A DNA stretch of 64,000 nucleotides from Escherichia coli. Its GTDB lineage: Bacteria; Pseudomonadota; Gammaproteobacteria; Enterobacterales; Enterobacteriaceae. The notes beneath the pieces are model-generated. The model was not told the DNA's origin. It made no database searches and saw only the letters and a list, made by a program, of their open reading frames with translations. Positions 4,926-55,263 of this stretch are shown here, one piece after another. Both the position numbers and the translations under genes were made by a program. Every line of letters starts with the position of its first letter. Within the stretch, counting starts at the first letter, position 1. The stretch lies in NCBI RefSeq assembly GCF_003991155.1, contig NZ_CP031293.1; one strand, 5' to 3'.

Positions 4926-6155
4926 ATGAAAACAACAGCTCTGCGTCTTTATGGTAAACGTGATTTACGCCTGGAAACCTTTGACCTTCCTGAAATGCAG
5001 GAGGATGAAATCCTCGCAACGGTGGTCACTGACAGCCTGTGCCTCTCTTCCTGGAAAGAGGCCAATCTGGGGGAAAACCATAAAAAAGTACCCGACGATG
5101 TGGCGACCAATCCCATCATCATCGGCCACGAATTTTGCGGCGATATTCTGGCCGTGGGTAAAAAGTGGCAGCACAAATTCCAGCCGGGTCAGCGTTATGT
5201 GATTCAGGCCAACCTGCAACTCCCCGACCGCCCGGACTGCCCCGGCTACTCCTTCCCGTGGGTAGGCGGCGAAGCGACGCATGTGGTTATTCCCAACGAG
5301 GTCATGGAACAAGATTGCCTGCTGGCATACGACGGCGAAACCTATTTTGAAGGCTCGCTGGTTGAACCGCTTTCCTGCGTGATTGGCGCGTTCAACGCCA
5401 ACTATCATCTTCAGGAAGGTAGTTATAACCACACGATGGGGATTCGCCCGCAAGGGCGCACGCTGATCCTCGGCGGCACCGGACCAATGGGACTGTTGGC
5501 GATTGATTATGCGCTACATGGACCCGTTAACCCTTCGCTGCTCGTCATTACCGATACCGACAACGACAAATTGAGTTATGCGCGCAAGCACTATCCATCA
5601 GAACCGCAAACACTGATTCATTATCTCAATGCCACCGATGCAGCATTTGATACGTTAATGGCGCTGAGTGGCGGTCACGGCTTCGATGATATTTTCGTCT
5701 TTGTGCCTAATGAAGGACTGGTGACTCTCGCCTCTTCCTTGCTGGCGACAGATGGTTGCCTGAATTTCTTCGCCGGACCGCAGGATAAGCACTTCAGCGC
5801 GCCAATTAATTTCTACGATGTGCATTATGCATTTACCCACTACGTAGGCACGTCAGGCGGCAATACCGACGACATGCGCGCAGCGGTCAAATTGATTGAA
5901 GAGAAAAAAGTGCAGGCCGCAAAAGTGGTAACACATATTCTTGGGCTGAATGCCGCGGGCGAAACCACGCTTGAATTGCCTGCCGTCGGCGGCGGGAAAA
6001 AACTGGTGTATACCGGGAAATATCTGCCGCTGACATCACTCACGCAGATTCAGGATGAAGAACTGGCGGCGATTCTGGCGCGTCATCAGGGAGTCTGGTC
6101 CGGCGAGGCGGAGCAGTACCTGCTCGCCCATGCAGAGGCGATTTCCCATGATTAA
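4926..6155 (+). CDS. sorE: L-sorbose-1-phosphate reductase, Zn-dependent alcohol dehydrogenase (MDR) family
   Basis: ORF 4914-6155; preferred start ATG 4926 after GAGGTGG; MDR-type motifs (GHEFCG; GGTGPMG nucleotide-binding loop); last sor gene. Confidence 0.7.
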   Translation: MKTTALRLYGKRDLRLETFDLPEMQEDEILATVVTDSLCLSSWKEANLGENHKKVPDDVATNPIIIGHEFCGDILAVGKKWQHKFQPGQRYVIQANLQLPDRPDCPGYSFPWVGGEATHVVIPNEVMEQDCLLAYDGETYFEGSLVEPLSCVIGAFNANYHLQEGSYNHTMGIRPQGRTLILGGTGPMGLLAIDYALHGPVNPSLLVITDTDNDKLSYARKHYPSEPQTLIHYLNATDAAFDTLMALSGGHGFDDIFVFVPNEGLVTLASSLLATDGCLNFFAGPQDKHFSAPINFYDVHYAFTHYVGTSGGNTDDMRAAVKLIEEKKVQAAKVVTHILGLNAAGETTLELPAVGGGKKLVYTGKYLPLTSLTQIQDEELAAILARHQGVWSGEAEQYLLAHAEAISHD

Positions 6156-6960
6156 TCGCGATACTCAACTCTGCATGTCGCTGGCCGGCTGCCCCGGTAA
6201 CTTCGGCACGCGTTTTCACAATTATCTTTATGAAAAGCTGGGGCTGAATTTCATCTATAAAGCGTTCACCACCCAGGATATTGCAGCGGCGGTGAAAGGG
6301 GTTCGCGCGTTGGGTATTCGCGGTTGCGCTGTGTCGATGCCGTTTAAAGAAAGCTGCATGCCTTTTCTCGACGCGATCGATCCGTCGGCGAAGGTCATTG
6401 ATTCCGTGAATACCATCGTGAATGACGACGGCAGGCTGACCGGGTTTAACACCGACTATATCGCGGTGAAAAGCCTGATTACCCACCACCAGCTCAATAC
6501 CACCACGCGAGTGATGATTCGCGGCAGTGGCGGCATGGGCAAAGCGGTGATTGCCGCCTTTCGCGACGCGGGGTTTACGGATGTTATCATTGCCGCCCGC
6601 AACCGCGAGAGCGGCCCGGCGCTGGCGAAGCAGTATGGGTTTCAGTGGCAACCGCAGCCGGAAGGCATCGCCTGCGACATTCTGGTCAACGTGACGCCCG
6701 TTGGCATGAGCGGCGGTAAAGAGAGCCATGAGCTGGCCTTCAGCGAAGCGATGGTCTCAACGGCAAGCGTCGTTTTTGATGTCGTGGCCTTGCCGCCGGA
6801 AACGCCGCTCATTCGCCTGGCGCAACGGCTTGATAAGCAGACGATTAGCGGTGCGGAGGTGATTGCTTTACAGGCCGTCGAGCAGTTCGCAATGTATACC
6901 GGCGTACGGCCTGATGCGCAACTGATTGCTGAGGCGGCACAATTTGCACGAGAAGGATAA
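6148..6960 (+). CDS. Shikimate 5-dehydrogenase-like (AroE/YdiB family) NAD(P)-dependent dehydrogenase, function in this context unknown
   Basis: ORF 6055-6960; preferred start ATG 6148 overlapping sorE stop (ATGATTAA); AroE-like motifs SMPFK and NTDY, glycine-rich GSGGMGKA. Confidence 0.6.
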   Translation: MINRDTQLCMSLAGCPGNFGTRFHNYLYEKLGLNFIYKAFTTQDIAAAVKGVRALGIRGCAVSMPFKESCMPFLDAIDPSAKVIDSVNTIVNDDGRLTGFNTDYIAVKSLITHHQLNTTTRVMIRGSGGMGKAVIAAFRDAGFTDVIIAARNRESGPALAKQYGFQWQPQPEGIACDILVNVTPVGMSGGKESHELAFSEAMVSTASVVFDVVALPPETPLIRLAQRLDKQTISGAEVIALQAVEQFAMYTGVRPDAQLIAEAAQFAREG

Positions 6961-7082
6961 GAAACATCAGCGCCTTGTTTGCCACGCCAGAAGCAATGCG
7001 CAACATCGTGAGCCATGTCAGTAAGCGGTTAAAATCACAGTGGTAGCATGGCTCCCGTGATTTCTTACTAACCGGAGAAGTA

Positions 7083-7772
7083 ATGGAACTGCTTTTATTG
7101 AGTAACTCGACGCTGCCGGGTAAAGCCTGGCTGGAACACGCGCTGCCGCTGATTGCTGAACAGTTGCAGGGTCGCCGTTCAGCGGTATTTATTCCTTTCG
7201 CTGGCGTAACGCAGACCTGGGATGATTACACAGCGAAAACGGCTGCGGTTCTCGCTCCGCTGGGTGTTTCTGTCACCGGTATTCATAGCGTTGTCGATCC
7301 CGTTGCCGCGATTGAAAATGCTGAGATCGTGATTGTCGGCGGCGGGAATACTTTCCAGTTGCTGAAACAGTGCCGCGAGCGCGGGCTGCTGGCACCAATT
7401 ACTGACGTGGTGAAACGTGGCGCGCTGTATATTGGCTGGAGCGCAGGCGCTAACCTTGCTTGCCCAACCATTCGTACCACCAACGATATGCCGATTGTCG
7501 ATCCGCAAGGTTTCGATGCGCTGAATCTGTTCCCGTTGCAAATCAACCCGCACTTCACCAACGCGCTGCCGGAAGGCCATAAAGGTGAAACGCGTGAGCA
7601 GCGTATTCGCGAACTGCTGGTCGTCGCGCCAGAACTCACAATTATTGGTCTACCGGAAGGTAACTGGATCACGGTGAGTAAAGGTCACGCTACGCTGGGT
7701 GGCCCGAACACCACTTATGTGTTTAAGGCTGGTGAAGAAGCGGTGCCGCTGGAAGCGGGTCACCGTTTTTAA
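7083..7772 (+). CDS. pepE: Peptidase E (alpha-aspartyl dipeptidase)
   Basis: 229 aa; [14 protein letters not shown]-terminus; SD GGAGAAG; conserved position next to yjbB. Confidence 0.9.
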
Positions 7773-7777
7773 GTGAA

Positions 7778-7852
7778 TTGCCGGATGCATAATCCGGCAT
7801 CTTGTTCATCGTGCCTGATGCGACGCTTTACGCGTCTTATCAGGCCTACAGG
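7778..7852. repeat. REP (repetitive extragenic palindromic) elements
   Basis: gccggatgcataatccggc and gcctgatgcgacgc...atcaggcctaca palindromic units between convergent pepE and yjbB. Confidence 0.7.
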
Positions 7853-7861
7853 GTCACGGTA

Positions 7862-9493
7862 TTAATACTCGTCCCGTCCTTCGTCTTCATCCGGCTGTTC
7901 CAGCACACTGTAAGCCACCGAACAAAACAGCGAGTTCAGACGCTGCATATCTCCCAGTAAGCCTAAATGTAGCGAACTGGTTTCAATGCTTTGCACGTTT
8001 TGCTGATGCAGGCGATCGACGTGAGCATGGGAATAACGGCGATTAAGAATGCGAAAGCGATGCTTGCTGCGGCGCAAACGACGGGCGCTGGTAACATCGC
8101 CAGAGAAGAAAACCGACATTGCCAGTTTTAAATTACTGAGCAATTGCTCATAGAGCGCATCCAGTTCCTTCAAGCCATCAAGCGAAAATGCCCGCCGTGC
8201 TGCCAGCGATTTATCGGCAATTTCGCTCCCCATGCGCTCGACGATATCGGAGGCCTGTTCAAGGTTGAGCGACATTTCGATGATCTCCGCCCAGCGGCGC
8301 GACTCTTCCTCCGCCAGCTCTTCTTTTGGCATCCGCGCCAGATACAGCTTAATGGCGGTATAGAGAACGTTGATATCATCTGCCAGCTTACGCAGCTCTT
8401 TCTCCTGCCGTGGCTCGCCGTGCATCACTTTATTCAGCCCTTCCATCATCTGTTCCATGGCGTCGCCAATGCGCAGGGTTTCGCGCGCGGCGTTCGCCAG
8501 AGCAAGCGTGGGCGTATCCAGCGCGCTGACATCCAGATGTTTGGGTCGTAGCTGGGTATCCAGTTCCGGTTCATCGCGAATAATCGTTTTGCAAAACCGT
8601 GCCATCGGGTCAACAAATGGCAGCATGACCAGGCAGCGTACAAGGTTGTAGAAGACGTGGAAATAGATCACCAGTTCCGCTTTTGGCAGTGGCAACTTCC
8701 CCATTGTCTCTGCCAGCAAATGGACAAACGGCAGGATAATCAGGCTACCCACCAGCTTAAACAGCAGGCTACCCAGCGCGACACGGCGGGCTGCGGCATT
8801 GGCGGCACTGTTGTTGAGCATCGCCAGCAGACCGGAACCGAGGTTAGCACCAATCACCAGACAGAGCGCCACGGGGAAGGAGATAATGCCTGCGGCGGTC
8901 AGAGTCGCGGTCAGCAGTACAGCAGCAAGGCTGGAGTAGCTGATAATGGCGAACATCGCGCCAATCAGCGCATCCAGCAGAATATCGCCGGTCAGCGAGG
9001 CAAAGATCACCTGAACGCCGTTTGCCTGGGTGATCGGCGTTACGGCCTGCACAATCAACTCCAGCGCCAGCAAAATCAGCCCAAGACCAATACCGACGCG
9101 GCCCAGTTGCCCGGCGCGTGACTGTTTGCGTCCGAGGAAAAAAATCACGCCGATAAAAATAAGTAACGGTGACAGCCAGGATAAGTCGAAGGTGAGAATA
9201 CGCGCCATTAGCGCCGTCCCGACATCTGCACCCAGCACAATCACCAGAGCCGGTGCGAGGGCTACCAGATCCTGAGCGACAAACGAGGTCACCAGCATGG
9301 TGGTGGCATTACTGCTCTGCACCAGTGCGGTAACGCCTATCCCCGCGCAAAAGGCGAGCGGCTTCTTTTCGACGCTTCGGCTAAGAACAGTACGCAGACG
9401 CGCGCCGAAGACGCGCATTACGCCGGTTCGAACAATATGAGTCCCCCAGACCAGCAGGGCGACGGCAGAAAGCAGGTGAAGCAAAGTTAGCAC
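7862..9493 (-). CDS. yjbB: Na+/phosphate symporter-like inner membrane protein (PhoU-domain containing)
   Basis: 543 aa; GTG start with GGAGAA upstream; multi-TM N-terminal half plus charged PhoU-like C-terminal half. Confidence 0.85.
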   Translation of the reverse strand: MLTLLHLLSAVALLVWGTHIVRTGVMRVFGARLRTVLSRSVEKKPLAFCAGIGVTALVQSSNATTMLVTSFVAQDLVALAPALVIVLGADVGTALMARILTFDLSWLSPLLIFIGVIFFLGRKQSRAGQLGRVGIGLGLILLALELIVQAVTPITQANGVQVIFASLTGDILLDALIGAMFAIISYSSLAAVLLTATLTAAGIISFPVALCLVIGANLGSGLLAMLNNSAANAAARRVALGSLLFKLVGSLIILPFVHLLAETMGKLPLPKAELVIYFHVFYNLVRCLVMLPFVDPMARFCKTIIRDEPELDTQLRPKHLDVSALDTPTLALANAARETLRIGDAMEQMMEGLNKVMHGEPRQEKELRKLADDINVLYTAIKLYLARMPKEELAEEESRRWAEIIEMSLNLEQASDIVERMGSEIADKSLAARRAFSLDGLKELDALYEQLLSNLKLAMSVFFSGDVTSARRLRRSKHRFRILNRRYSHAHVDRLHQQNVQSIETSSLHLGLLGDMQRLNSLFCSVAYSVLEQPDEDEGRDEY

Positions 9494-9663
9494 GGAATCA
9501 GGTTCTCCTTTTTGTTATGCATTTTCCTGTTAAGATTTTTCTAATCACGTTATTTTTATCCAGGCATTTCTCTTGTATGTACTTTCAGTATAAGAGATTT
9601 ATACAAGAAAGCATTTAAAAAGGCATTTATATAAAAATCCACCTGTATCTGTTGCTATTTCTG

Positions 9664-10113
9664 TCACACTTTCCCCTGTCGTTTACACCAGATAATCGTT
9701 GTCACTTTTGTGACCTCTGAGAAGATAAACAACGAAATATTTAAGACCAGATCCTGTGAATGAAAATAATTAAGTAACAACGGTATTACGGAGATTGAAC
9801 AGCTTACGGTAGCAAAACGCATAAACTCCTGAATCGCCAAAAAAGAGAAACTAAATAATTCTTGTCTTAAAAAACATTGCGCAGAAAAGAATAAAGAGAA
9901 CAATAATACTATTTGTAGCGTAACAGTGGCGACTGCATAAGCGTAAAAACCGCCTTCAACACCGATATCCTTAAGTAAAGAAAGTGAATGAACGATATCG
10001 GAATAAAAAGGGATACGACCATTACCAAGCGAGTAGAACAAATATGTGGCTATCGCGATAACATCCATGACACCCCAAAAAAGAAGAATGTATTTTTTAT
10101 ATTGACGTTGCAT
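9664..10113 (-). CDS. Small hydrophobic membrane protein, unknown function (accessory)
   Basis: 149 aa; ATG start with AAAGGA upstream; about 4 predicted TM segments; AT-rich codon usage unlike flanking core genes. Confidence 0.4.
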   Translation of the reverse strand: MQRQYKKYILLFWGVMDVIAIATYLFYSLGNGRIPFYSDIVHSLSLLKDIGVEGGFYAYAVATVTLQIVLLFSLFFSAQCFLRQELFSFSFLAIQEFMRFATVSCSISVIPLLLNYFHSQDLVLNISLFIFSEVTKVTTIIWCKRQGKV

Positions 10114-10155
10114 AAAGTAAATCCTTTTTACGAAAACAAATATTACCAGGAATTA

Positions 10156-10476
10156 TTATAATTGCGGGCGTTTTTGGATTAACACTCCACCCGTATTTTT
10201 AAAAATCCTGTCAGCCATACCTTCACTAAACAAGACATCGATACGCCCTTTACTTTTATCGTGATACAGAATACTGCATGAGATACACCTTATACCCTCT
10301 TTGGATTTACGAAAATCTAACCAAAAACGACCATCATAAAAGACCCACTCCACACCTGTTTTTATATTAATTATCCAATCATTATAACCTGTTGGTTTTT
10401 TTCCTAATAGTTCAGTAACTTCGGACTCTGAACATCCTTCGAAAGCAAAAAAATCTATTTCATCGATTTTTATCAT
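10156..10476 (-). CDS. Small soluble protein, unknown function (accessory)
   Basis: ORF 10156-10482 opens on TTG; preferred ATG at 10476 (MIKIDEIDFF); Trp/Phe-rich; AT-rich; no strong SD. Confidence 0.35.
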   Translation of the reverse strand: MIKIDEIDFFAFEGCSESEVTELLGKKPTGYNDWIINIKTGVEWVFYDGRFWLDFRKSKEGIRCISCSILYHDKSKGRIDVLFSEGMADRIFKNTGGVLIQKRPQL

Positions 10477-44571: not shown

Positions 44572-44735
44572 AAAATAACGTCTCAGTACGCTATTTCATG
44601 ATTGCCCGCAAAAATATTCATTAATATTTCTATTGTTTTAACAAAGAAGGCACAAGGCTTTAATTGCAAAGCAAGATCGCCGTCAAAACAAGAGTGTGCA
44701 ATAACCGGTTATAATAATTCCACCCTCACCAAAAT

Positions 44736-45386
44736 ATGGTCCAGAACATCATGTCAGCTTACCTAAAAAAAGCGTTATCGATTCATAGTGATGAATTTCG
44801 CCCATACGGAAACGTAATTTCTGCAATAAATGTAGATTCATTGCTTAAATACCTTAAAGAGGAAATTTCTGTACCTGAGGATCAGGTGGCATATGTCAGA
44901 AGCGATGAGCGCTTAAAGCAATACCCCGCCGTGAGCGACATTCAGCGCCAAATCTACGGTGGAATGCCCGTTCAGGCTGGGTACGTTTGTGGGGTAAATA
45001 CCACCCAGGATGGCTTTGAATATCACCAGGGAAGTGAAGTCATTATCGCCGCCAGCGATTTTTTCCTGTTTTTAGGTAAACGAGAGTTGATGCAGGGTGA
45101 CACGTTTAATGGTGAACGTGCAGAGCCGTTTTTCATTCCGGCAAAATCGGTGATTGAACTTTATAGCACAACGCTACATTACTGCCCTATGAGTATCAAT
45201 GCACAACCTTTTAGTGCAGCGATTATTCTTCTTGATGGAACTAATGAAGATATTGATGGCAAGAATAAACCAACAATATTAAGCAAGCGAAATACCTGGT
45301 TTATCGCCCATGAAAGTTTCACTGAGCATCCTTGCCCATTATTAAAAGGGCCGCATCTTTGCGTGAATGATATTATTCATGGGTGA
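44736..45386 (+). CDS. Cupin-fold protein of unknown function (accessory)
   Basis: 216 aa; cupin-like motifs (G..EYHQGSEV..., ...TTLHYCP...); AT-rich; alternative start ATG 44751 (MSAYLKK); no strong SD. Confidence 0.45.
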   Translation: MVQNIMSAYLKKALSIHSDEFRPYGNVISAINVDSLLKYLKEEISVPEDQVAYVRSDERLKQYPAVSDIQRQIYGGMPVQAGYVCGVNTTQDGFEYHQGSEVIIAASDFFLFLGKRELMQGDTFNGERAEPFFIPAKSVIELYSTTLHYCPMSINAQPFSAAIILLDGTNEDIDGKNKPTILSKRNTWFIAHESFTEHPCPLLKGPHLCVNDIIHG

Positions 45387-45390
45387 AAAT

Positions 45391-45410
45391 GGCGAAGATT
45401 TCTCTTCGCC
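45391..45410. terminator. Bidirectional hairpin terminator between convergent genes
   Basis: GGCGAAGA-tttc-TCTTCGCC perfect stem with T-rich flanks on both strands, between stops at 45386 and 45417. Confidence 0.5.
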
Positions 45411-45416
45411 TGTTCT

Positions 45417-48071
45417 TTACCCGGCAATTACCGCCACGCTGTCTTTTGTTCGCACGCGTGGTGGCATGGTCAGACCGCAGCGATCCCACTCATTCCCCTG
45501 CCATGCACTCGCAAAATAATAATGATTCGCTGCCGATGGGTAGACCACGACCGCCAGTTCATTACGCTTTTTTAGTAAAGACTGTGGCAAGGTGAAACGA
45601 TATTCCGGCCAGCCCTTTTCGGCAATTAACGTATCGTTAAGCCAGATAGCAACGCTTCCCTGCACTTGCGGTAAATAAAGCTCAATATCGTCGGTAATCG
45701 TCTCCAGCGCAAAGCGTAACTGATAATGTCCCGGACCACACCACGTCTCCATCCCCTGCTGCTCCCACCCTTTTGTTACCTCAACGGGTCGGGAAACGTT
45801 ATCAACCAGCAGTTGCCAGTGCTTATCCAGCACCACCTCGTGGCGACTTTCCACTACCTGCAATGAAAAGCAACGGGCCTGCCAGGGCTCGATTTGTAGC
45901 GGATAACTTCCCGTGAGATGCTCTTCCAGCACTGAAACCTCTCCCGTTGCAAGATGCCACTCCGACAACTGCCCACTGAGGCCCGGAAAATGTAGCCAGC
46001 CGTAGAGCGGGGTATCTCCGTCGTTAAATACGCTGACGTAACGCGATGTTTCATCCTGGGTAATTCGCGTCCAGACGGCAGTTTTCCGGGAGGGATAGTC
46101 AACAAAGGGGTGATCGTTTTTCAGCGTGTCGGCTAACGTGCTGCACTGCGGTTGCGCCTCAATCAGTTTTTGCAGCCTTTCGGTGAGAGAACGATCTTCA
46201 CCTTTTTCCTCGCTATATGCCGCAAGCTCGCCGGCGATCAGAAGCTGGCCACCAGCGGCGACAAAGTGCTCCAGTTGGCTCAGCGTGGCGGCTGATTTCA
46301 CCACCTTAACGTCCGCTAACAGAAGCGCAGGGAAATTCATGCCGTTAATGCGCGTTCCATCAGCCTGGAGCAAATTCTCTTCATCAATAAAGAAATATTC
46401 AAATCCCTGAGCGCTGAGTTGTTTTGCCCAATATTCGCCTGACTGCCCTTCGTTGCCATCCACGCCACAGTGCCAGAAAGTCCGTTTGGGATAGAGTACG
46501 CCAACATCAACGTACGGCTCTCCCTGCTCAAGAAATTCGGCAAGGCGACCAGATTCCTGAGCAAACCCAGCGTGGAAGGCGTACCAGGGCTGGAAGTTAA
46601 CGCCCGGCGCAAAATCAAAACGCGGGTTACTTAATACGTCGTCATTTGCCTCGCCATCCGTCAGCCAGAACGCGTGCATCAAAAATTGCCGCGCACCGAG
46701 GAGGTGATGGCGCAATGCCTGCAACCGGATGTCATGCAGTGAAATTTCCCACTGCCCGGCAGCAAAATGTGTGCATGGCTTCACCCGCGCATAATATTGC
46801 TCAACAATGCACCCTTTACGCCCATGAGCGCGCGCCACAGAGTCGCCAACCTTCGCCGCCATCTGCGGCTCGCTATTTCGCGAATCGACAGCCGTAATAT
46901 CCCGCCAGCCATCGAGAGCAAAGTAATCCATAGCAAAATTACACCGGTTATCTTCGGTGATGATTTTACTGGCGAAATTCCAGCTACTAACGTGACCTAA
47001 TACTTCATGACCACTTAGCTGTATTCCCCGCTGGTGCGCCCATTCTGACAACGTACCAAAAAAGGCCTGCATCGCCTGGCTGGAATAACAGGAAAGCAGC
47101 TCACAGCGCCGACGTGCGGTACGACTGCCAATGTCCATAACTAACGACATCAGGTTTTCTGCCAGGCAGTAAGGTGCCTGTTGCAATGCATCAACAAACC
47201 TTTTTTCATACATTAAGGAGGATTTGACCGCGCCAGTATGTTCATTCCATTGCCAGAAACAGGCGTGTGGCTGGTCGAAAAAGAGATACGCCACCGTCTT
47301 ACCAAAATGATCGCCAAAAGCGCGGGCGTAAGGTTCATAGCCGACACGAATAAAATTTTCTGCCGCTTCGGGCATCAGGTAATTAATCATCCGTGAGGTC
47401 AAGCAACGCGCCGCGGCAAAGAGCGTCACTACCGTTTCCGCACCCCAGGGCAGGTCGCTTCCCGTAAAGGTGACCTCAAATTCCTCTGTGGTTGCTTTGG
47501 TGATGCGGGCCAATGAAGAAACATCAACAATTTCATCTGCATTGCACTCCCCTGATGAAGAGGTGGCATACGCTGCGACAATTTCCCATTCATCCCACGC
47601 CGGTTTACCGCCAGCAAAAATCCACTCCATTCCACACTGCTGTAGCGCCTGCGCATCCGCAGAGCGGATCCCGGAAAGGTGACATGTCAGTACATCTGCA
47701 GACCGGCTGGACTGGCTCCAGAAAAGATGGCGCTCACGCAGCTCATCTCTCCCTTCAACGGTCCTTCCCCCGGCGTGCCCGGAAAGCCAGTTGTAATCAT
47801 CGTAGATGCCCATCATCAGCCCAATATTGGCAGCTTTATCAGCCGTGTAGCGACAGGCTGCCAGCCACTCCTCACTGAGATAACTCTCCAGCGGAAGACT
47901 CAGACGTGCGGCTATCTGAAATGAACCATACCCTCCCGCCTGCAGTTGCCTCAGTTGGCTGTCGATCTGCTTTTTGTCCGGAATGGTATGCCAGAACCAG
48001 TAGGTTGCAGGCAGGTGCCATACATCAGGATTTTTAAAGTTTTGGCGTGCCTGTGCTAACGAATCATTCAT
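45417..48071 (-). CDS. Large cytoplasmic hydrolase-like enzyme, probable glycoside hydrolase with C-terminal beta-sandwich; family unassigned (accessory)
   Basis: ORF 45417-48104; preferred start ATG 48071 (MNDSLAQARQNF) preceded by AAGGGGGA and overlapping upstream permease stop; 884 aa; no signal peptide; aromatic-rich N-terminal region. Confidence 0.55.
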   Translation of the reverse strand: MNDSLAQARQNFKNPDVWHLPATYWFWHTIPDKKQIDSQLRQLQAGGYGSFQIAARLSLPLESYLSEEWLAACRYTADKAANIGLMMGIYDDYNWLSGHAGGRTVEGRDELRERHLFWSQSSRSADVLTCHLSGIRSADAQALQQCGMEWIFAGGKPAWDEWEIVAAYATSSSGECNADEIVDVSSLARITKATTEEFEVTFTGSDLPWGAETVVTLFAAARCLTSRMINYLMPEAAENFIRVGYEPYARAFGDHFGKTVAYLFFDQPHACFWQWNEHTGAVKSSLMYEKRFVDALQQAPYCLAENLMSLVMDIGSRTARRRCELLSCYSSQAMQAFFGTLSEWAHQRGIQLSGHEVLGHVSSWNFASKIITEDNRCNFAMDYFALDGWRDITAVDSRNSEPQMAAKVGDSVARAHGRKGCIVEQYYARVKPCTHFAAGQWEISLHDIRLQALRHHLLGARQFLMHAFWLTDGEANDDVLSNPRFDFAPGVNFQPWYAFHAGFAQESGRLAEFLEQGEPYVDVGVLYPKRTFWHCGVDGNEGQSGEYWAKQLSAQGFEYFFIDEENLLQADGTRINGMNFPALLLADVKVVKSAATLSQLEHFVAAGGQLLIAGELAAYSEEKGEDRSLTERLQKLIEAQPQCSTLADTLKNDHPFVDYPSRKTAVWTRITQDETSRYVSVFNDGDTPLYGWLHFPGLSGQLSEWHLATGEVSVLEEHLTGSYPLQIEPWQARCFSLQVVESRHEVVLDKHWQLLVDNVSRPVEVTKGWEQQGMETWCGPGHYQLRFALETITDDIELYLPQVQGSVAIWLNDTLIAEKGWPEYRFTLPQSLLKKRNELAVVVYPSAANHYYFASAWQGNEWDRCGLTMPPRVRTKDSVAVIAG

Positions 48072-49563
48072 GGCTTTCCCCCTTCTTAATCGGCGGAACA
48101 TCACAATGACAAATGTATGTCAAAATGGCATACAGCGCCGCGCCCACCAGCATCGCCACCACTACGCCAATATTTGCTGTCGCAAACACGCTGGTTTTGG
48201 TTTCTGCCGTCAGTAAGAAGCCGACCAGGTGAGCAATCCACGGATCGCCTGAGGTGATGGTTCCCATGCCGATAACCGATGCAACAAACAGCGATAATAA
48301 TGCCGTCCAGCGACCGTTACGCCCGCCAAGCCCCGCGGGCTGCGCCATATCAGTGTTCCAGTGCAAGCGTTTTTGCCGGGCAAAGTCGACAAGCTGGATT
48401 GCGCCCATCGATCCCAATACGACGGATACCGTTGCCAGAAAAGACTGAAAGGTTGCGAGGAACGAGTCAGAAACAAACAATAAGTAGAAGGCACCGAATG
48501 CGATAATGACCGCATTGATAGCAGTGGTGGTTGAACGACTGGCTGGAACGCCCATTGCCAGCAATGCGAGGCCTGAGCTGTAAACACCTGTAATGGCTGC
48601 CGCCAGCAGGGAGATGATGATCACGATTGAAAACGGCACATAGAACCAAAACGGCAGGAACGAGGTTAAGGCCGCAATCGGTTCGGACGCTGCTGCTCCG
48701 CTCAGTTCCGGGTTACTGTCGGCCAGCAGGGCACCTAAAATCAGCAGGATGGAAACCGGAAGCGAAATCCCAAGCGACGTCCAGAAAATCACTTTCCCGG
48801 CAGCGGTTTTGCGCGGCAGGTAACGGGCGAAATCACCGCCATAGTTGAGAAAGCCCAGCCCAACCATCGTCATTGCCATCACCATGCCGCCGATAAACGT
48901 TAAAAATCCGGCATCGGGAGCAGCACCCGCCTGCGACCAGTGAATATGTGGCAGGATCAGGATAATAAAGATGATGCTCATTCCGCCCGTTAACCATGCA
49001 ATATACTTTTCTACCTTCATGATGAGCTGGTGGCCGTAGATGGCAACGGACATAGTCAATACTAAGGTCACCACGAACCAGCCCAACAGGCACCCTAAGG
49101 TAGGGTGACCGTTTTCTGCTGCAAATACGGTTGGCCATAACCGGGCAAAGAGGGCGGCGCCAGTGGTCGAGGACAACGTAATAATGGTGATTTTCCAGCC
49201 CATATTGGAAATATAGGCAAATAAAGTGGGGATCTTATTCCCATGATAACCAAAGGCAAATCGGGTCTGCGTTAAGGTAGGCAGCCCGGTGCGTGGCCCA
49301 CCAACGGCCAGAACCCCCACCAGCGTGCTGGATAAAAAATAGCCCACGACACCGGCAACAATCGCCTGCCAGAGGCTTAACCCCAGTGAGTAAACATAAA
49401 TCCCATAGGTAATACCGAGGATGGATACATTCCATGAAAACCAGATCGGGAAAAGTCCGGCAGGCGAACCATAACGTTCGTTATCACTAACCGGGTTTAC
49501 CCCATTGGTTTCCACCTTCATCGTACCTGAAACATCAGATGGGTTCTGGGCTTGGCTCGTCAT
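48064..49563 (-). CDS. NCS1-type (nucleobase/nucleoside/vitamin cation symporter-like) permease (accessory)
   Basis: ORF 48064-49755; preferred start ATG 49563 (MTSQAQNPSD) preceded by GAGAGGA; 499 aa, about 12 TM; N-terminal P..ER...F..WFS.N motif resembling NCS1 family. Confidence 0.55.
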   Translation of the reverse strand: MTSQAQNPSDVSGTMKVETNGVNPVSDNERYGSPAGLFPIWFSWNVSILGITYGIYVYSLGLSLWQAIVAGVVGYFLSSTLVGVLAVGGPRTGLPTLTQTRFAFGYHGNKIPTLFAYISNMGWKITIITLSSTTGAALFARLWPTVFAAENGHPTLGCLLGWFVVTLVLTMSVAIYGHQLIMKVEKYIAWLTGGMSIIFIILILPHIHWSQAGAAPDAGFLTFIGGMVMAMTMVGLGFLNYGGDFARYLPRKTAAGKVIFWTSLGISLPVSILLILGALLADSNPELSGAAASEPIAALTSFLPFWFYVPFSIVIIISLLAAAITGVYSSGLALLAMGVPASRSTTTAINAVIIAFGAFYLLFVSDSFLATFQSFLATVSVVLGSMGAIQLVDFARQKRLHWNTDMAQPAGLGGRNGRWTALLSLFVASVIGMGTITSGDPWIAHLVGFLLTAETKTSVFATANIGVVVAMLVGAALYAILTYICHCDVPPIKKGESHE

Positions 49564-49564
49564 T

Positions 49565-50782
49565 TTATTTCCTCTCATATTGAGCAAGACGTGATAGTAC
49601 GGCTTCATACTCAGGCATGTTCGATGCGCCTTCCCGCTCGACCGCCAGAGAAGCAAACGCAGAGGCAAATTTTGCTGCACTGAGCAACGGCTGGCCCTGC
49701 GCAATCGCCGCAGCAAACGCACCGTTAAACGCATCCCCCGCACCGGTGGTGTCAATACTTACTGCTTTTAACGCTGGAATATGGGTAAATTGTTCACCGT
49801 CATAAATCAGCGCCCCTTGAGAACCCATCGTAATAATGATGTTTTTTGCCCCCAGGGATTTTATGGTTTGCGCCGCTTCTTTCGCACTCTCGATATCATT
49901 AATCTCGACACCGGACATCAGCGACGCTTCTGTTTCATTCGGTGTCAGATAATCAACATATTGCAGGCATTCTTTTGCCTGGTCAGAATAAGGGGCTGGG
50001 TTAAGGATAGTTTTCACGCCCGACCGATGTGCCATATTTAGTGCCAGCGTGGTTGCTTCAAAGTTATTTTCCAACTGTGTCAAAAATATTTTGGCGTCCG
50101 TCAACTCACCCGCAATACTGGCAACTTCCGCTTCAGTGATATATTGATTGGCGCCAGAATAAATCGCGATCTTGTTTTCACCAGCAGGCTCCGAAACATA
50201 TATTATGGCGCTTCCTGTTTTATGCTCTTCGTCCTGGTAGAGGGTAAAGCTGCGGATATCGGATGAAGAGAGATGATCATGCGCCATCTGGCCGAAATGG
50301 TCGTTGCCAACTTTGCCGACGAAGTGTACCTGGACGGGACATTTGCTGGCTGCCATCGCCTGGTTTGCGCCCTTGCCGCCAGGTCCAATGATGGTATTGC
50401 TGGCAAGAATTGATTCGCCGCTTTTAGGGAAGCGATCAACTTTGGCAATAATATCGACATTAAAAGATCCTAATATACAAACTTTGCTTATCATTATTTT
50501 CCCTTTTTTGTTTGTCATCGAGTTTTTTCGCCAGTTGACCTGATTGAGGAACTTTTCAATAGAGGTACCAACGTTATTAACGGGCTGAGAATGGAAAATC
50601 CGACGCAATATTATTGCTCCGCCGTGACAACGCTCAACACCCCCTTGCTCCGCTAATAAATTTAAATCATTACGGATCGTTTCTTTACTGACAGAGAATA
50701 AGATGGCGAGTTGATTAACCGTAGCCCGCTCATGTTTATTCAAATATGCCAATATTTGACGTTGTCTTTCTTTCCCAAACAT
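49565..50782 (-). CDS. Fusion protein: N-terminal DeoR-type HTH domain + PfkB-family ribokinase-like sugar kinase (accessory)
   Basis: 405 aa; N-terminal RQILAYLNKHERATVNQLAILFSVSKETIRNDL (DeoR HTH); kinase motifs GPGGKGANQA, NPAP, TPNETEA and DTTGAGDAFNGA collinear with RbsK; SD GAGGTGA before ATG 50782. Confidence 0.7.
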   Translation of the reverse strand: MFGKERQRQILAYLNKHERATVNQLAILFSVSKETIRNDLNLLAEQGGVERCHGGAIILRRIFHSQPVNNVGTSIEKFLNQVNWRKNSMTNKKGKIMISKVCILGSFNVDIIAKVDRFPKSGESILASNTIIGPGGKGANQAMAASKCPVQVHFVGKVGNDHFGQMAHDHLSSSDIRSFTLYQDEEHKTGSAIIYVSEPAGENKIAIYSGANQYITEAEVASIAGELTDAKIFLTQLENNFEATTLALNMAHRSGVKTILNPAPYSDQAKECLQYVDYLTPNETEASLMSGVEINDIESAKEAAQTIKSLGAKNIIITMGSQGALIYDGEQFTHIPALKAVSIDTTGAGDAFNGAFAAAIAQGQPLLSAAKFASAFASLAVEREGASNMPEYEAVLSRLAQYERK

Positions 50783-50985
50783 GATTTCACCTCACGTAAC
50801 ATTTATATCTTTTGTAATTTTCTGATTCCATGAATCCTTTCACACTACCATCACGAAAACAAAAACAAACGGGAATTTTTGGAGGAAAGGTTTTTTTATT
50901 CAATGGGATAGTGAGAGGGGAATGTTGTTTTGAAAAAACACTCCCGAAAAATGCGTGGGAAAGCGCTTTCAATCGTAAACGGAAT

Positions 50986-51020
50986 GCAAAAAAAAGCCAG
51001 TCAGTGTGACCTGACTGGCT
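50986..51020 (-). terminator. Rho-independent terminator of rpoC
   Basis: Minus-strand hairpin GCCAGTCAGGTCACACTGACTGGC followed by TTTTTTTT. Confidence 0.8.
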
Positions 51021-51039
51021 TATTTCTTAAGAAGAGCGA

Positions 51040-54000
51040 TTACTCGTTATCAGAACCGCCCAGACCTGCGTTCAGCAGTTCTGCCAGGCTGGCAGATGCG
51101 TCTTCTGCAGTCACCTGCGGTGCAGCCGGAGCTTCACCCGCAGCACGGCGACGCATACGATCCTGGTGGTACGCGTAACCGGTACCTGCCGGGATCAGAC
51201 GACCCACGATAACGTTCTCTTTCAGGCCGCGCAGTTCGTCGCGTTTGCCCGCAACGGCTGCTTCGGTCAGCACGCGAGTGGTCTCCTGGAACGATGCCGC
51301 GGAGATGAAGGACTCGGTTGCCAGAGACGCTTTGGTGATACCCAGCAGATCGCGGGAGTAAGTTGCACCCACTTTGCCGTTCGCTTCCAGTTCGCGGTTT
51401 GCGATCTTGACGCGAGAGTATTCAACCTGTTCACCTTCCAGGAAGTCGGAGCTGCCCGCGTTAACGATGGTAGCTTTACGCAGCATCTGACGAACGATAA
51501 CTTCGATGTGTTTATCGTTAATCTTAACGCCCTGCAGACGGTATACGTCCTGTACTTCGTTAACGATGTAACGAGTCACAGCATGAACACCACGCAGACG
51601 CAGAATGTCGTGCGGCGCTTCCGGACCGTCGGAAATTACGTCACCACGTTCTACACGTTCACCTTCGAACACGTTGAGTTGACGCCATTTCGGAATCATC
51701 TCTTCGTACGGATCGCTACCGTCTACCGGGGTGATAACCAGACGACGTTTACCTTTGGTTTCTTTACCGAAGGAAACGATACCGCTGATTTCAGCCAGGA
51801 TTGCCGGCTCTTTCGGACGACGTGCTTCGAACAGGTCCGCAACGCGCGGCAGACCACCGGTGATGTCCTTGGTACCGCCGGATTCCTGCGGAATACGCGC
51901 CAGGGTGTCACCAGAGCTGATCTGTACGCCATCTTCCAGCTGAACAATCGCTTTACCCGGCAGGAAGTACTGCGCAGGCATATCGGTACCCGGGATCAGA
52001 ACATCGTTACCCTGAGCATCAACGATTTTCAGCGCCGGACGCAGATCTTTACCACCTGCGGTACGTTCTGCGGAATCCAGAACCACCAGCGAAGACAGAC
52101 CGGTCAATTCGTCGGTCTGACGAGTAATGGTCTGGCCGTCGATCATGTCAGTAAAGCGTACAAAACCGCTTACTTCGGTGATAACCGGCATGGTGTGCGG
52201 GTCCCAGTTTGCAACGGTTTCGCCGCCAGCAACCTGTTCGCCATCGCCTTTCGCCAGTACCGCACCGTAAGGTACTTTGTAGCTTTCTTTGGTACGACCG
52301 AATTCGTCGATCAGTTTCAGTTCGGTGTTACGGGAAGTGATAACCAGTTTACCGCTGGAGTTCACAACCGACTTCACGTTGCTGAGCTTGATGCTACCTT
52401 TGTTTTTCACCTGGATGCTGGATTCAGCAGCCGCACGAGATGCCGCACCACCGATGTGGAACGTACGCATGGTCAGCTGTGTACCCGGTTCACCGATGGA
52501 CTGTGCCGCGATAACACCGATTGCTTCACCTTTGTTGATGAGGTGGCCACGCGCCAGGTCACGACCGTAGCAGTGCGCACATACACCAAAGTCGGTGTCA
52601 CAAGATACAACAGAACGTACTTTAACCGCGTCGACAGAGTTCTCTTCCAGCAGGTCACACCACTGTTCGTGCAGCAGCGTGTTGCGCGGAACGAGGATAT
52701 CAGCAGTACCCGGCTTCAGAACGTCTTCAGCAGTTACACGACCCAATACGCGATCGCGCAGCGGCTCTTTAACGTCACCACCCTCGATAACCGGAGTCAT
52801 CATGATACCTTCATGGGTACCACAATCGTCTTCGGTAACCACCAGGTCCTGCGCCACGTCAACCAGACGACGAGTCAGGTAACCGGAGTTCGCAGTTTTC
52901 AGTGCGGTATCCGCCAGACCTTTACGAGCACCGTGGGTGGAGATGAAGTACTGGAGTACGTTCAGACCTTCACGGAAGTTCGCGGTGATTGGCGTTTCGA
53001 TGATGGAGCCATCCGGCTTCGCCATCAGACCACGCATACCAGCAAGCTGACGAATCTGTGCCGCAGAACCACGCGCACCGGAGTCGGCCATCATGTAGAT
53101 GCTGTTGAAGGAAACCTGCTTCTCTTCCTGACCGTCACGGTTAATAACGGTTTCAGTTTGCAGGTTATCCATCATCGCTTTGGATACACGATCGTTCGCC
53201 GCAGCCCAGATATCGATAACTTTGTTGTAGCGTTCGCCCGCAGTTACCAGACCAGACTGGAACTGCTCCTGAATTTCAGCAACTTCTGCTTCTGCCTCGG
53301 AGATGATTTCGTGTTTCTTCTCCGGGATGACCATGTCATCGATACCAACAGATGCACCAGAACGCGCTGCATAGGCGAAGCCGGTGTACATGATCTGGTC
53401 CGCAAAAATAACGGTCGGTTTCAGACCGAGAATGCGGTAGCAGGTGTTCAGCATTTTGGAGATTGCTTTCTTACCCAGCGCCTGGTTGACGATGGAGTAA
53501 GGCAGACCTTTCGGTACAATCATCCACAGAATGGCACGGCCAACGGTCGTATCTTTCAGGCTGGTTTTCGCTACTAATTCACCGTTAGCATCTTTTTCAT
53601 ACTCGGTGATACGCACTTTAACGCGCGCATGCAGAGAAGCCAGACCAGAGCGATACAGACGTTCTGCTTCTTTCGGGCCAGTCAGCACCATGCCTTCGCC
53701 TTTGGCGTTAACACAGTCGCGGGTCATGTAGTACAGACCCAGTACAACGTCCTGAGACGGAACGATGATTGGTTCGCCGTTCGCCGGGGACAGGATGTTG
53801 TTGGTAGACATCATCAGCGCACGCGCTTCCAGCTGGGCTTCCAGCGTCAGCGGTACGTGAACAGCCATCTGGTCACCATCGAAGTCGGCGTTATATGCCG
53901 CACAAACCAGCGGGTGCAGCTGGATAGCTTTACCTTCGATCAGTACCGGTTCAAATGCCTGGATACCCAGACGGTGCAGAGTCGGTGCACGGTTCAGCAG

Positions 54001-55263
54001 TACCGGGTGTTCGCGGATAACTTCGTCCAGGATATCCCAAACGACAGCTTCTTCGCGCTCAACCATTTTCTTCGCAGCTTTAATGGTGGTAGCAAGACCA
54101 CGCAGTTCCAGCTTGCCGTAGATGAACGGTTTGAACAGTTCCAGTGCCATTTTCTTCGGCAGACCGCACTGATGCAGACGCAGGTATGGACCTACGGTGA
54201 TTACAGAACGACCGGAGTAGTCAACACGCTTACCGAGCAGGTTCTGACGGAAACGACCCTGTTTACCTTTGATCATGTCGGCCAAAGATTTCAGAGGACG
54301 CTTGTTAGAACCAGTGATCGCACGACCGCGACGACCGTTATCCAGCAGGGCGTCTACCGCTTCCTGCAGCATACGTTTTTCGTTACGTACGATGATATCT
54401 GGCGCAGCCAGATCCAGCAGACGTTTCAGACGGTTGTTACGGTTAATGACGCGACGATACAGATCGTTCAGGTCAGAAGTCGCGAAACGACCACCATCCA
54501 GCGGAACCAGCGGACGCAGATCTGGCGGCAGTACCGGCAGAACGGTCAGGATCATCCACTCTGGTTTGTTACCAGACTGAACGAACGCTTCCAGCAGTTT
54601 GATACGCTTGGTCAGCTTTTTACGCTTGGTTTCGGAGTTGGTTTCGTTCAGCTCTTCACGCAGCTGTTCGCACTCTTGCTCCAGATCCATGCTCTTCAGC
54701 AGGGCCTGGATTGCTTCCGCACCCATCTTCGCGTCGAATTCGTCACCGAACTCTTCCAGCGCGTCCAGATACTGCTCTTCAGTCAGGATCTGCTGACGCT
54801 CCAGGTTGGTCATACCGCCTTCGATAACCACATAGGATTCGAAGTACAGTACGCGTTCGATATCGCGCAGCGGCATATCGAGCAGCAGGCCGATACGGGA
54901 CGGCAGCGATTTCAGGAACCAGATGTGCGCAGTCGGGGAAGCCAGTTCGATGTGGCCCATACGCTCACGGCGTACTTTAGTCTGGGTCACTTCAACACCG
55001 CACTTCTCACAGATGACGCCACGGTGTTTCAGGCGCTTGTACTTACCGCACAGGCACTCGTAATCTTTTACCGGCCCAAAGATACGGGCGCAGAAAAGGC
55101 CGTCACGTTCTGGTTTGAACGTACGGTAGTTGATGGTTTCCGGCTTTTTAACTTCACCGAAAGACCATGAACGGATCATGTCTGGCGAAGCCAGAGCAAT
55201 TTTGATCGCATCAAACTCTTCGGTTTTAGTCTGCGCTTTCAGAAACTTTAATAAATCTTTCAC
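51040..55263 (-). CDS. rpoC: DNA-directed RNA polymerase subunit beta'
   Basis: 1407 aa; [64 protein letters not shown]. Confidence 0.98.

Follow-up and report, generated by a model that had tools for sequence, protein, structure and literature searches.

A conserved, probable promoter-operator region was found upstream of a gene that encodes a DeoR-type helix-turn-helix (HTH) domain fused to a ribokinase, in a 64,000-nucleotide stretch of the Escherichia coli chromosome (assembly GCF_003991155.1, contig NZ_CP031293.1), which is referred to here as the window. The window carries rpoBC on its − strand, with rpoC at 51040–55263 (−), and the region of interest (50783–50985) is the gap from the rpoC terminator to the first start codon of the operon headed by the fusion gene. 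An original prediction had described this gap as an AT-rich control region, and its G+C content is indeed 36 %, compared with 52.5 % for the whole window. Comparison across lineages indicates that 50795–50875 (−) is probably (with a probability of roughly 0.6) a CRP-dependent sigma-70 promoter with an autoregulatory DeoR-type operator for a three-gene operon. A vaguely defined AT-rich region is thereby turned into a precise map of a predicted operator, CRP site, −10 box and start; the map holds for an operon carried by about 1 % of E. coli and for related operons in many Enterobacterales associated with plants or the gut.

Layout of the predicted promoter and operator

All elements lie on the − strand, and their positions are given relative to the start predicted from the −10 box (approximately 50795). 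They are, in the direction of transcription:

50975–50985 (−): distal repeat-like unit standing alone, ATTCCGTTTAC, located 110 bp upstream of repeat unit 1
50866–50875 (−): direct-repeat unit 1, TTCCCGTTTG, spanning about −80 to −71; proposed as an operator half-site bound by the HTH_DeoR::ribokinase protein
50856–50865 (−): direct-repeat unit 2, TTTTTGTTTT, at about −70 to −61; proposed second operator half-site
50848–50855 (−): 8-nt spacer, CGTGATGG, at −60 to −53; fixed in length and free in sequence across lineages
50826–50847 (−): CRP-like 22-mer, TAGTGTGAAAGGATTCATGGAA, centred between 50836 and 50837 (−41.5 relative to the predicted start)
50802–50807 (−): candidate −10 hexamer, TATAAA, at −12 to −7
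50795 (−): predicted transcription start (±2 nt), 7 nt downstream of the −10 hexamer
50790–50793 (−): Shine-Dalgarno sequence GAGG, 7 nt before the ATG (50782); conserved in the type A alignments described below

The halves of the CRP-like site are TGTGA at 50840–50844 and TCATG at 50829–50833 (−). The predicted start implies a 5′ untranslated region of 12–14 nt in this genome and of 12–17 nt in the other lineages.

Conservation across lineages and operon types

The comparison set consisted of ten lineages and three metagenome variants carrying HTH_DeoR::ribokinase fusion genes. Useful homologous loci were obtained from a search for protein homologues followed by retrieval of the contigs encoding those proteins, a peptide scan of genome contigs having returned only Escherichia relatives and distant plain kinases. 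The fusion proteins were 58–81 % identical across lineages and head three different types of operon. Type A included E. coli, Escherichia whittamii, Superficieibacter and a metagenome relative, with fusion proteins approximately 80 % identical, as well as some Salmonella loci. In type B (Salmonella) the fusion gene is accompanied by an ABC transporter and an ADP-ribosylglycohydrolase, and in type C (Rahnella, Pectobacterium, Dickeya, Erwinia, Aeromonas and Citrobacter youngae) by a DHDPS-like protein, a DUF386 protein and an MFS transporter; the fusion homologues of types B and C were 58–65 % identical. Footprinting among the E. coli carriers was uninformative, all 49 being at least 99 % identical. 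Alignment of the interval from rpoC to the start codon in four type A loci showed diverged, indel-rich DNA outside five conserved blocks, namely the terminator stem, ATTCCCGTTTGTTTTTGTTTT, TGTGAAAGGATTCATGGAAT, ATATAA and the Shine-Dalgarno sequence.

The same layout was found upstream of the fusion gene in every locus examined and in all three operon types: two 10-bp direct repeats (core YYGTTT), 8 nt, a CRP-like T..GA-N6-TCA motif, 18 nt and a TAnnnT −10 box. Across the span of about 80 nt that runs from repeat unit 1 to the −10 box, the ten lineages aligned without gaps, neither spacer contained a conserved column, and the three further metagenome variants held the same register. The G of each GTTT in the repeats was invariant, although the units differed in sequence (for example, CTTCCGTTTA followed by CTTCCGTTTC in Pectobacterium vs TTCCCGTTTG followed by TTTTTGTTTT in E. 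coli). Positions T4, G7, A8, T15, C16 and A17 of the CRP-like 22-mer were invariant in the ten lineages while the inner 6 nt varied. In all lineages exactly 18 nt separated the 22-mer from the −10 hexamer, which had an invariant TA and occurred in the forms TATAAA, TATAAC, TAATAT, TATTCT, TAGGCT, TACTCT, TAGTCT and TAATCT. The elements, their conservation and their fixed register were thus observed directly in the alignments.

A position weight matrix (PWM) constructed from the six type C sites only ranked the window site first among 127,958 positions (18.3 bits compared with 12.6 for the next match; z=5.2) and also recovered the sites in Superficieibacter, Salmonella and the metagenome locus L012. 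A matrix constructed from type A sites only found in-register sites in five of the seven type B and C loci; it failed in Rahnella, where the best match was 6 nt out of register, and in Dickeya, where the site was missed. Each locus of approximately 13 kb contained one site, with no second copy detected by PWM scan in the window or in any locus.

The significance of the tract derives from this cross-species conservation only. The repeat tract that had been noticed initially is present as AAAACAAAAACAAAC at 50856–50870 (+); the fusion gene has the − strand as its sense strand, on which the tract reads GTTTGTTTTTGTTTT. This 15-mer, with up to two mismatches allowed, occurred once in the window compared with 0.25 times expected, and at least one match was present in 23 of 100 shuffles; by itself it is not more than chance. 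A search of the window for repeats did not return the tract as a repeat family, giving only trivial 8–9-nt pairs and the terminator, because the 10-bp repeat is too imperfect within a single sequence. The units of 5–6 nt (AAAAC) originally proposed were not supported, the cross-species alignment showing that the true repeat unit is 10 bp.

Metagenomes were also scanned with the repeat pattern TTYYGTTTRCTTCCGTTT alone, and the figures given refer to the matches listed. In four of these a fusion gene followed about 95 nt downstream, a fifth was an Erwinia-like copy truncated before the gene, and those five alone had a CRP-like site in register. The scan bears out the composite layout, and no further regulon members were present among the matches listed.

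The lone distal unit ATTCCGTTTAC lies directly after the U-run of the terminator and is identical to a Pectobacterium-type repeat unit. It was the second-best match of the type C matrix in the window, and each of the five type A lineages had a unit of this type −198 to −210 from the ATG, 110–116 bp from unit 1. It may be an auxiliary half-operator, for example for looping, or a T-run coincidence.

The CRP-like site and promoter class

The second conserved block, between the repeats and the −10 box, had been missed in the original prediction. It was judged by consensus matching to TGTGA-N6-TCACA only, and the window site matches this consensus at 8 of 10 core positions. The block is best read as a CRP site because only CRP-type half-site positions are common to all operon types. 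A LacI- or GalR-type palindrome (TGAA-N4-TTCA) and an FNR site were considered and rejected, as the positions shared by the three operon types are only those of the CRP-type motif T..GA-N6-TCA. Of the two −10-like elements reported earlier, TATAAA is present on the transcribed strand at 50802–50807 (−) and is the conserved −10 candidate, while TAAAAT occurs on neither strand of 50783–50985, the nearest sequence being AAAAAT at 50875–50880 (−).

A good −35 element is absent, the candidate CRP site overlaps a poor −35, and a scan detected no activator-independent promoter on the − strand. Measured from the start that the conserved −10 hexamer implies, the CRP-like site is centred at −41.5, the usual centre of class II CRP sites (PMC2859248). 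The C-terminal domain of the RNA polymerase alpha subunit (alpha-CTD) contacts DNA 18–19 bp away from the CRP site's centre (PMC2859248), and the contact predicted here, at about −63 to −58, would overlap the 3′ end of repeat unit 2. The region resembles class II CRP promoters (galP1, melR and the model promoter CC(−41.5)) in having a TGTGA-N6-TCA site, with a predicted centre at −41.5, together with a poor −35 and, just upstream, the expected docking position of the alpha-CTD (PMC2859248). It differs from them in the type A −10 box, which lacks a terminal T, in that its start and CRP dependence are predicted, and in having a second specific site locked 8 bp upstream of the CRP 22-mer. With this fixed operator-to-CRP spacing it would provide a simple natural system for studying the upstream modulation of a class II CRP promoter by a specific regulator.

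The fusion protein

The candidate trans-acting factor is encoded immediately downstream of the control region:

49565–50782 (−): HTH_DeoR::PfkB (ribokinase) fusion gene, 405 aa; first gene of the operon and presumed source of the factor that binds the repeats

The domain composition agrees with the kinase-regulator initially proposed. The Pfam domain HTH_DeoR (PF08220) matched residues 6–59 (E=1.1e-17; 63.9 bits with a cut-off of 21) and PfkB matched residues 100–389 (E=6.1e-72). No match to DeoRC (PF00455), the C-terminal domain for effector binding and oligomerization, was found in the fusion protein, the place of residues 100–389 being taken by PfkB. The protein is a DeoR-type HTH joined to a different sensor or enzyme and is not a canonical member of the DeoR family. 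The best NCBIfam matches of the N-terminal part were GlpR, AgaR and SrlR. The ribokinase equivalog model TIGR02152 was matched above its cut-off (313.5 bits vs 299.65), while the score for the enterobacterial RbsK model NF008353 was below threshold (277.8 vs 341). A sequence search of solved structures gave ribokinases as all of the closest hits; these covered the kinase part only (residues ~97–402), with no chain over the N-terminal HTH.

Recognition-helix residues E34, T35, I36, R37, D39 and L40 were invariant in ten homologues, which fits a conserved operator. Residues N108, D110, G135, G136, K137, N140, N282, E285, G347, A348, G349 and D350 were likewise invariant in ten homologues and are assigned, on the basis of E. 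coli RbsK, to the ribokinase motifs N-x-D and GG-K (close to the domain's N-terminus), NxxE and GAGD (with the catalytic Asp). The fusion protein is plausibly both enzyme and sensor, because the equivalog cut-off was passed and the GG, NxxE and GAGD motifs are invariant. The kinase domain is the likely sensor and ribose the likely signal, since a ribokinase that looks intact stands in place of the DeoRC sensor domain. All three operon types combine the fusion with a transporter and a cleavage enzyme.

A literature search for a characterized DeoR-PfkB or ribokinase fusion regulator found no relevant paper in the collection searched. Two features appear to be new: a DeoR HTH fused to an active-looking ribokinase as the architecture of a putative regulator, and a conserved, position-locked predicted operator upstream of a class II CRP-like site. 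The protein is comparable to the trigger enzymes NadR (HTH, nicotinamide mononucleotide adenylyltransferase and ribosylnicotinamide kinase), BirA and PutA, in which a DNA-binding domain is combined with a substrate-sensing enzyme fold. The ROK repressors NagC and Mlc also have a sugar-kinase fold with an N-terminal HTH; the fusion protein is unlike these in having a PfkB fold and in appearing, by sequence, to be catalytically intact. An N-terminal HTH_DeoR and a regulator gene placed first in the operon are shared with the DeoR-type RhaR of Rhizobiales, Thermotogales and Chloroflexi and with AgaR, GlpR and SrlR of E. coli. In contrast to these sugar regulators, DeoRC is replaced by a complete ribokinase, the putative operator (YYGTTT-N4-YYGTTT) is its own, and this operator is placed on the upstream side of the CRP site instead of covering −35, −10 or +1. 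A large group of genes annotated only as ‘ribokinase’ is suggested to encode transcription regulators as well, which bears on regulon annotation and on the sensing of ribose-releasing nutrients.

The commonest context of the fusion gene was nan-like (type C loci L014–L019, ~6001–10250 in each), with a DHDPS/NanA-family lyase, a DUF386 (YhcH-like) protein and an MFS transporter. Such a gene set would be in keeping with the breakdown of a 3-deoxy-ulosonic acid, with aldol cleavage giving a pentose for the kinase.

Proposed regulation and alternative explanations

The repeats are read as the operator of the fusion protein because they travel with the fusion gene and not with the cargo genes, because DeoR-type sites take the form of tandem direct repeats and because the HTH recognition helix is invariant in all lineages. 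DeoR-type regulators have been reported to use a pair of imperfect direct repeats whose period is 10–11 bp (PMC3870299). An autoregulatory operator, as first suggested, is still the best reading of the region, given a conserved tandem direct repeat that accompanies the fusion gene across three operon types.

Under this reading, recruitment of RNA polymerase would need cyclic AMP–CRP. A dimer of the operon’s own fusion protein would bind both repeats head-to-tail through its DeoR-type winged HTH. Bound in this way, it would most likely repress by blocking CRP-dependent recruitment (anti-activation, following a CytR-like logic), since the repeats abut or overlap the alpha-CTD docking place upstream of the class II CRP site. 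Binding of a sugar substrate by the kinase domain would release the fusion protein, the substrate probably being D-ribose freed from an imported compound, and the operon would be negatively autoregulated, substrate-induced and catabolite-controlled. In this scheme the identity of the binding proteins, the effector, the point where transcription starts and whether control is positive or negative are all predictions. A specific regulator combined with CRP is the ordinary design for a catabolic operon.

Anti-activation by CytR occurs at deoP2, cdd and udp, where this LacI-family protein sits between two CRP dimers and needs contact with CRP. The present arrangement is similar in that the putative regulator of a ribose or nucleoside operon would bind directly beside CRP and not over the core promoter, and the fixed spacing to the CRP site suggests interplay with CRP or the alpha-CTD. 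Unlike in the CytR system, there is one CRP site and the HTH is of the DeoR type; the analogy would be one of mechanism and not of membership.

Several observations weigh against this interpretation. The repeats, at −61 to −80, are not at the classic position of a repressor over −35, −10 or +1, and they lie near the position of a class I activator (−71.5), so the fusion protein could activate. They are T-rich and of low complexity, and their assignment to the cis-encoded HTH is proposed by co-occurrence and family analogy only. The metagenome scan gave at least 120 matches to the repeat pattern, of which 115 were chance matches without a CRP-like site or fusion gene. In E. coli the CRP site has a weak right half (TCATG), and the −10 box of type A loci ends in A or C (TATAAA, TATAAC) instead of the usual T. 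A consensus promoter scan found no − strand promoter in the region; TATAAA was missed because the scan demands a T at −10 position 6 and a decent −35. Lastly, a Salmonella type A locus (L023, 3190–3225) has a 6-nt gain inside the tract (CCCGTTTGCTTTTGTTTTTGTTTTT / GTTTGCTTTTGTTTTTGTTTTT) that shifts the intact repeat pair by half a helical turn from the CRP site, so that strict spacing is not universal. This gain suggests slippage in the T-rich repeat, and the allele constitutes a natural +6-bp variant in the spacing of the operator relative to the CRP-like site.

The most credible alternative, although clearly a less probable one, is that the fusion protein at the repeats (centred at about −70.5) is a co-activator that acts with CRP through the alpha-CTD, in a class I or class III-like manner. 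The repeats are centred near the position canonical for class I, their constant distance of 8 nt to the CRP site in ten lineages suggests a stereospecific protein–protein or protein–alpha-CTD arrangement, and the poor −35 and imperfect −10 point the same way. There is also a precedent in FucR, a DeoR-family activator that works with CRP at the fuc promoters, but most characterized members of the family are repressors, and the half-turn shift of 6 bp tolerated by the Salmonella type A locus fits steric blocking better than activation that depends on the face of the helix. It is improbable that the repeats are instead an UP-element-like or bent T-tract that aids the alpha-CTD, or the site of an unlinked regulator of the OmpR/PhoB type that binds 10-bp direct repeats. 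In E. coli the tract is very T-rich (GTTTGTTTTTGTTTT) and is placed where the alpha-CTD binds at class II promoters, and several type C sites contain GTTTAC, which bears some resemblance to OmpR half-sites. However, the Pectobacterium and Erwinia units (CTTCCGTTTR) have conserved C and G positions, unlike A/T-only UP elements, and the G of each GTTT is retained throughout. Either reading is further disfavoured because element and fusion gene occur together in three operon and genome contexts that are unrelated, and in Aeromonas, and because PWM scans of the window and of each locus found no second copy.

The remaining alternatives relocate the promoter or assign the region to a transcript. A weak upstream promoter for the type A operon (TTGAAT at 50898–50903, a 17-nt spacer and AAAAAT at 50875–50880) would place the repeats at about −7 to +13 as a roadblock operator, with a leader of ~75 nt downstream. 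This sequence matches the sigma-70 consensus at 8 of 12 positions with a 17-bp spacer, TGAAT and the AT before CCCG are partly conserved in type A loci, and the leader proposed in the original prediction would be partly right. We nevertheless regard it as unlikely, as the sequence is under the threshold of the promoter scan, is not conserved in types B and C (the sequence before the repeats being G+C-rich in Dickeya and Erwinia), leaves the conserved CRP-like site and the fixed-spacing −10 unexplained and would produce a leader with no RNA structure signal.

It is very unlikely that the region acts as an RNA (riboswitch or attenuator leader) or encodes a small protein. Both candidate open reading frames (ORFs) exist, a TTG-started ORF of 61 codons at 50787–50972 (−) and one of 59 aa at 50830–51009 (+), and the sense-strand frame was open for 65–80 codons in four orthologous regions. 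The 61-aa ORF had already been suspected of being non-coding, which was substantiated: it has no Shine-Dalgarno sequence, and its product, ends and starts are not conserved in orthologous loci. More generally, ORF products were conserved only where the DNA motifs lie, with differing lengths, ends and starts, the antisense ORF had 63, 53, 39 and 26 codons in four lineages, and the indels in the alignment were not multiples of three. No Rfam match came near its gathering score (the best were 29 vs 229 and 26 vs 55 bits, driven by the terminator), and the fold was no better than that of shuffled sequences (z=−0.74). The accompanying idea that the region is a leader was not supported, as the predicted start lies ~13 nt before the ATG and nearly all of the 200 bp would be untranscribed promoter or spacer, with no RNA structure or Rfam match.

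Returning to the preferred reading of a CRP-dependent promoter under an autoregulatory operator, a broader proposal can be put forward more tentatively. HTH_DeoR::ribokinase proteins, annotated ‘ribokinase’, may be widespread unrecognized enzyme-regulators of Enterobacterales and Aeromonas, in which the HTH of an active kinase would occupy a tandem 10-bp repeat 8 bp upstream of a class II CRP site, over the alpha-CTD docking position, and exert substrate-responsive anti- or co-activation. The cassette of regulator, operator, CRP site and −10 box would then be a portable control head, put to use again in at least three different ribose-yielding catabolic modules, and in E. coli it would have arrived with its own terminator, which now ends rpoBC.

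The terminator downstream of rpoC

The control region is preceded by an intrinsic terminator:

50986–51021 (−): intrinsic terminator, with a stem-loop at 50994–51021 (AAGCCAGTCAGG-loop-CTGACTGGCTT) and then an 8-U run at 50986–50993

A terminator scan gave a stem of 11 bp with six G–C pairs and a loop of 6 nt, and the predicted fold had an energy of −22.7 kcal/mol (z=−5.57). A G+C-rich hairpin followed directly by a U-run is the form of a Rho-independent terminator. The stem was invariant in E. coli, E. whittamii, Superficieibacter, the metagenome locus L012 and Salmonella, while the loop varied. An rpoC terminator had been predicted at this place; a strong intrinsic terminator does lie just upstream of the control region, but it is the island’s own and not that of K-12. 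Transcription of rpoBC is now ended by an island-borne terminator instead of the K-12 rpoC terminator, as homology to K-12 breaks off 3 nt after the rpoC stop codon. By its strength and its position just upstream, this terminator would shield the operon from rpoBC read-through. In one Salmonella enterica genome (CP074650.1; L023, 2755–3075), ~320 bp of extra DNA follows directly after the terminator hairpin and the intergenic region is 582 bp; the insert had no match in Rfam or in E. coli genomes.

The island and its genomic setting

All of the elements described above, including the terminator, are contained in an accessory segment:

44576–51036 (no strand assigned): accessory segment of 6.46 kb, delimited by BLAST comparison with K-12

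By BLAST, identity to K-12 stops at window position 51037, 3 nt past the rpoC stop codon, and returns at 44575, 157 nt past thiH, the DNA between being unrelated to K-12. Besides the terminator and the control region, this putative sugar-utilization island contains the fusion gene and the genes for an NCS1 permease, an 884-aa protein and DUF4867, and it replaces the K-12 rpoC terminator, yjaZ (htrC) and the small RNA gene sroH. The rpoC–thiH interval of K-12 is the same chromosomal slot, and each allele has an intrinsic terminator directly after rpoC. Of 5426 complete E. coli genomes, 49 carried the island allele and 5367 that of K-12. In the strains that carry the island, a foreign terminator thus ends the essential rpoBC operon, and yjaZ and sroH are missing. 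The same gene order was found directly after rpoC in Superficieibacter electus, and the same island between rpoC and thiH in some S. enterica. The island was likely exchanged through homologous recombination in its flanks, since neither an integrase nor flanking repeats were seen at it.

The fusion gene, the NCS1 permease gene and the 884-aa gene form a tight three-gene operon, in which the permease gene starts 1 nt after the fusion gene and the 884-aa gene overlaps the permease gene by 8 nt. The third gene is located at 45417–48071 (−). Its product gave no match in Pfam, NCBIfam or PDB-sequence searches. Homologues were 35–89 % identical and for the most part ‘hypothetical’, ‘glycoside hydrolase’ or ‘carbohydrate-binding’ proteins from Actinobacteria, Bifidobacterium and Firmicutes; a few had a weak GH106 (PF17132) match. 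It is probably an uncharacterized glycosidase-like enzyme that would free ribose from the imported substrate.

The DUF4867 gene (44736–45386, +) lies on the thiH side of the island, convergent to the operon, and has no repeat-operator site upstream. It is probably outside the core module, as it is missing from the Superficieibacter locus. In published work, DUF4867 has been linked to sulfoquinovose catabolic gene clusters of Firmicutes.

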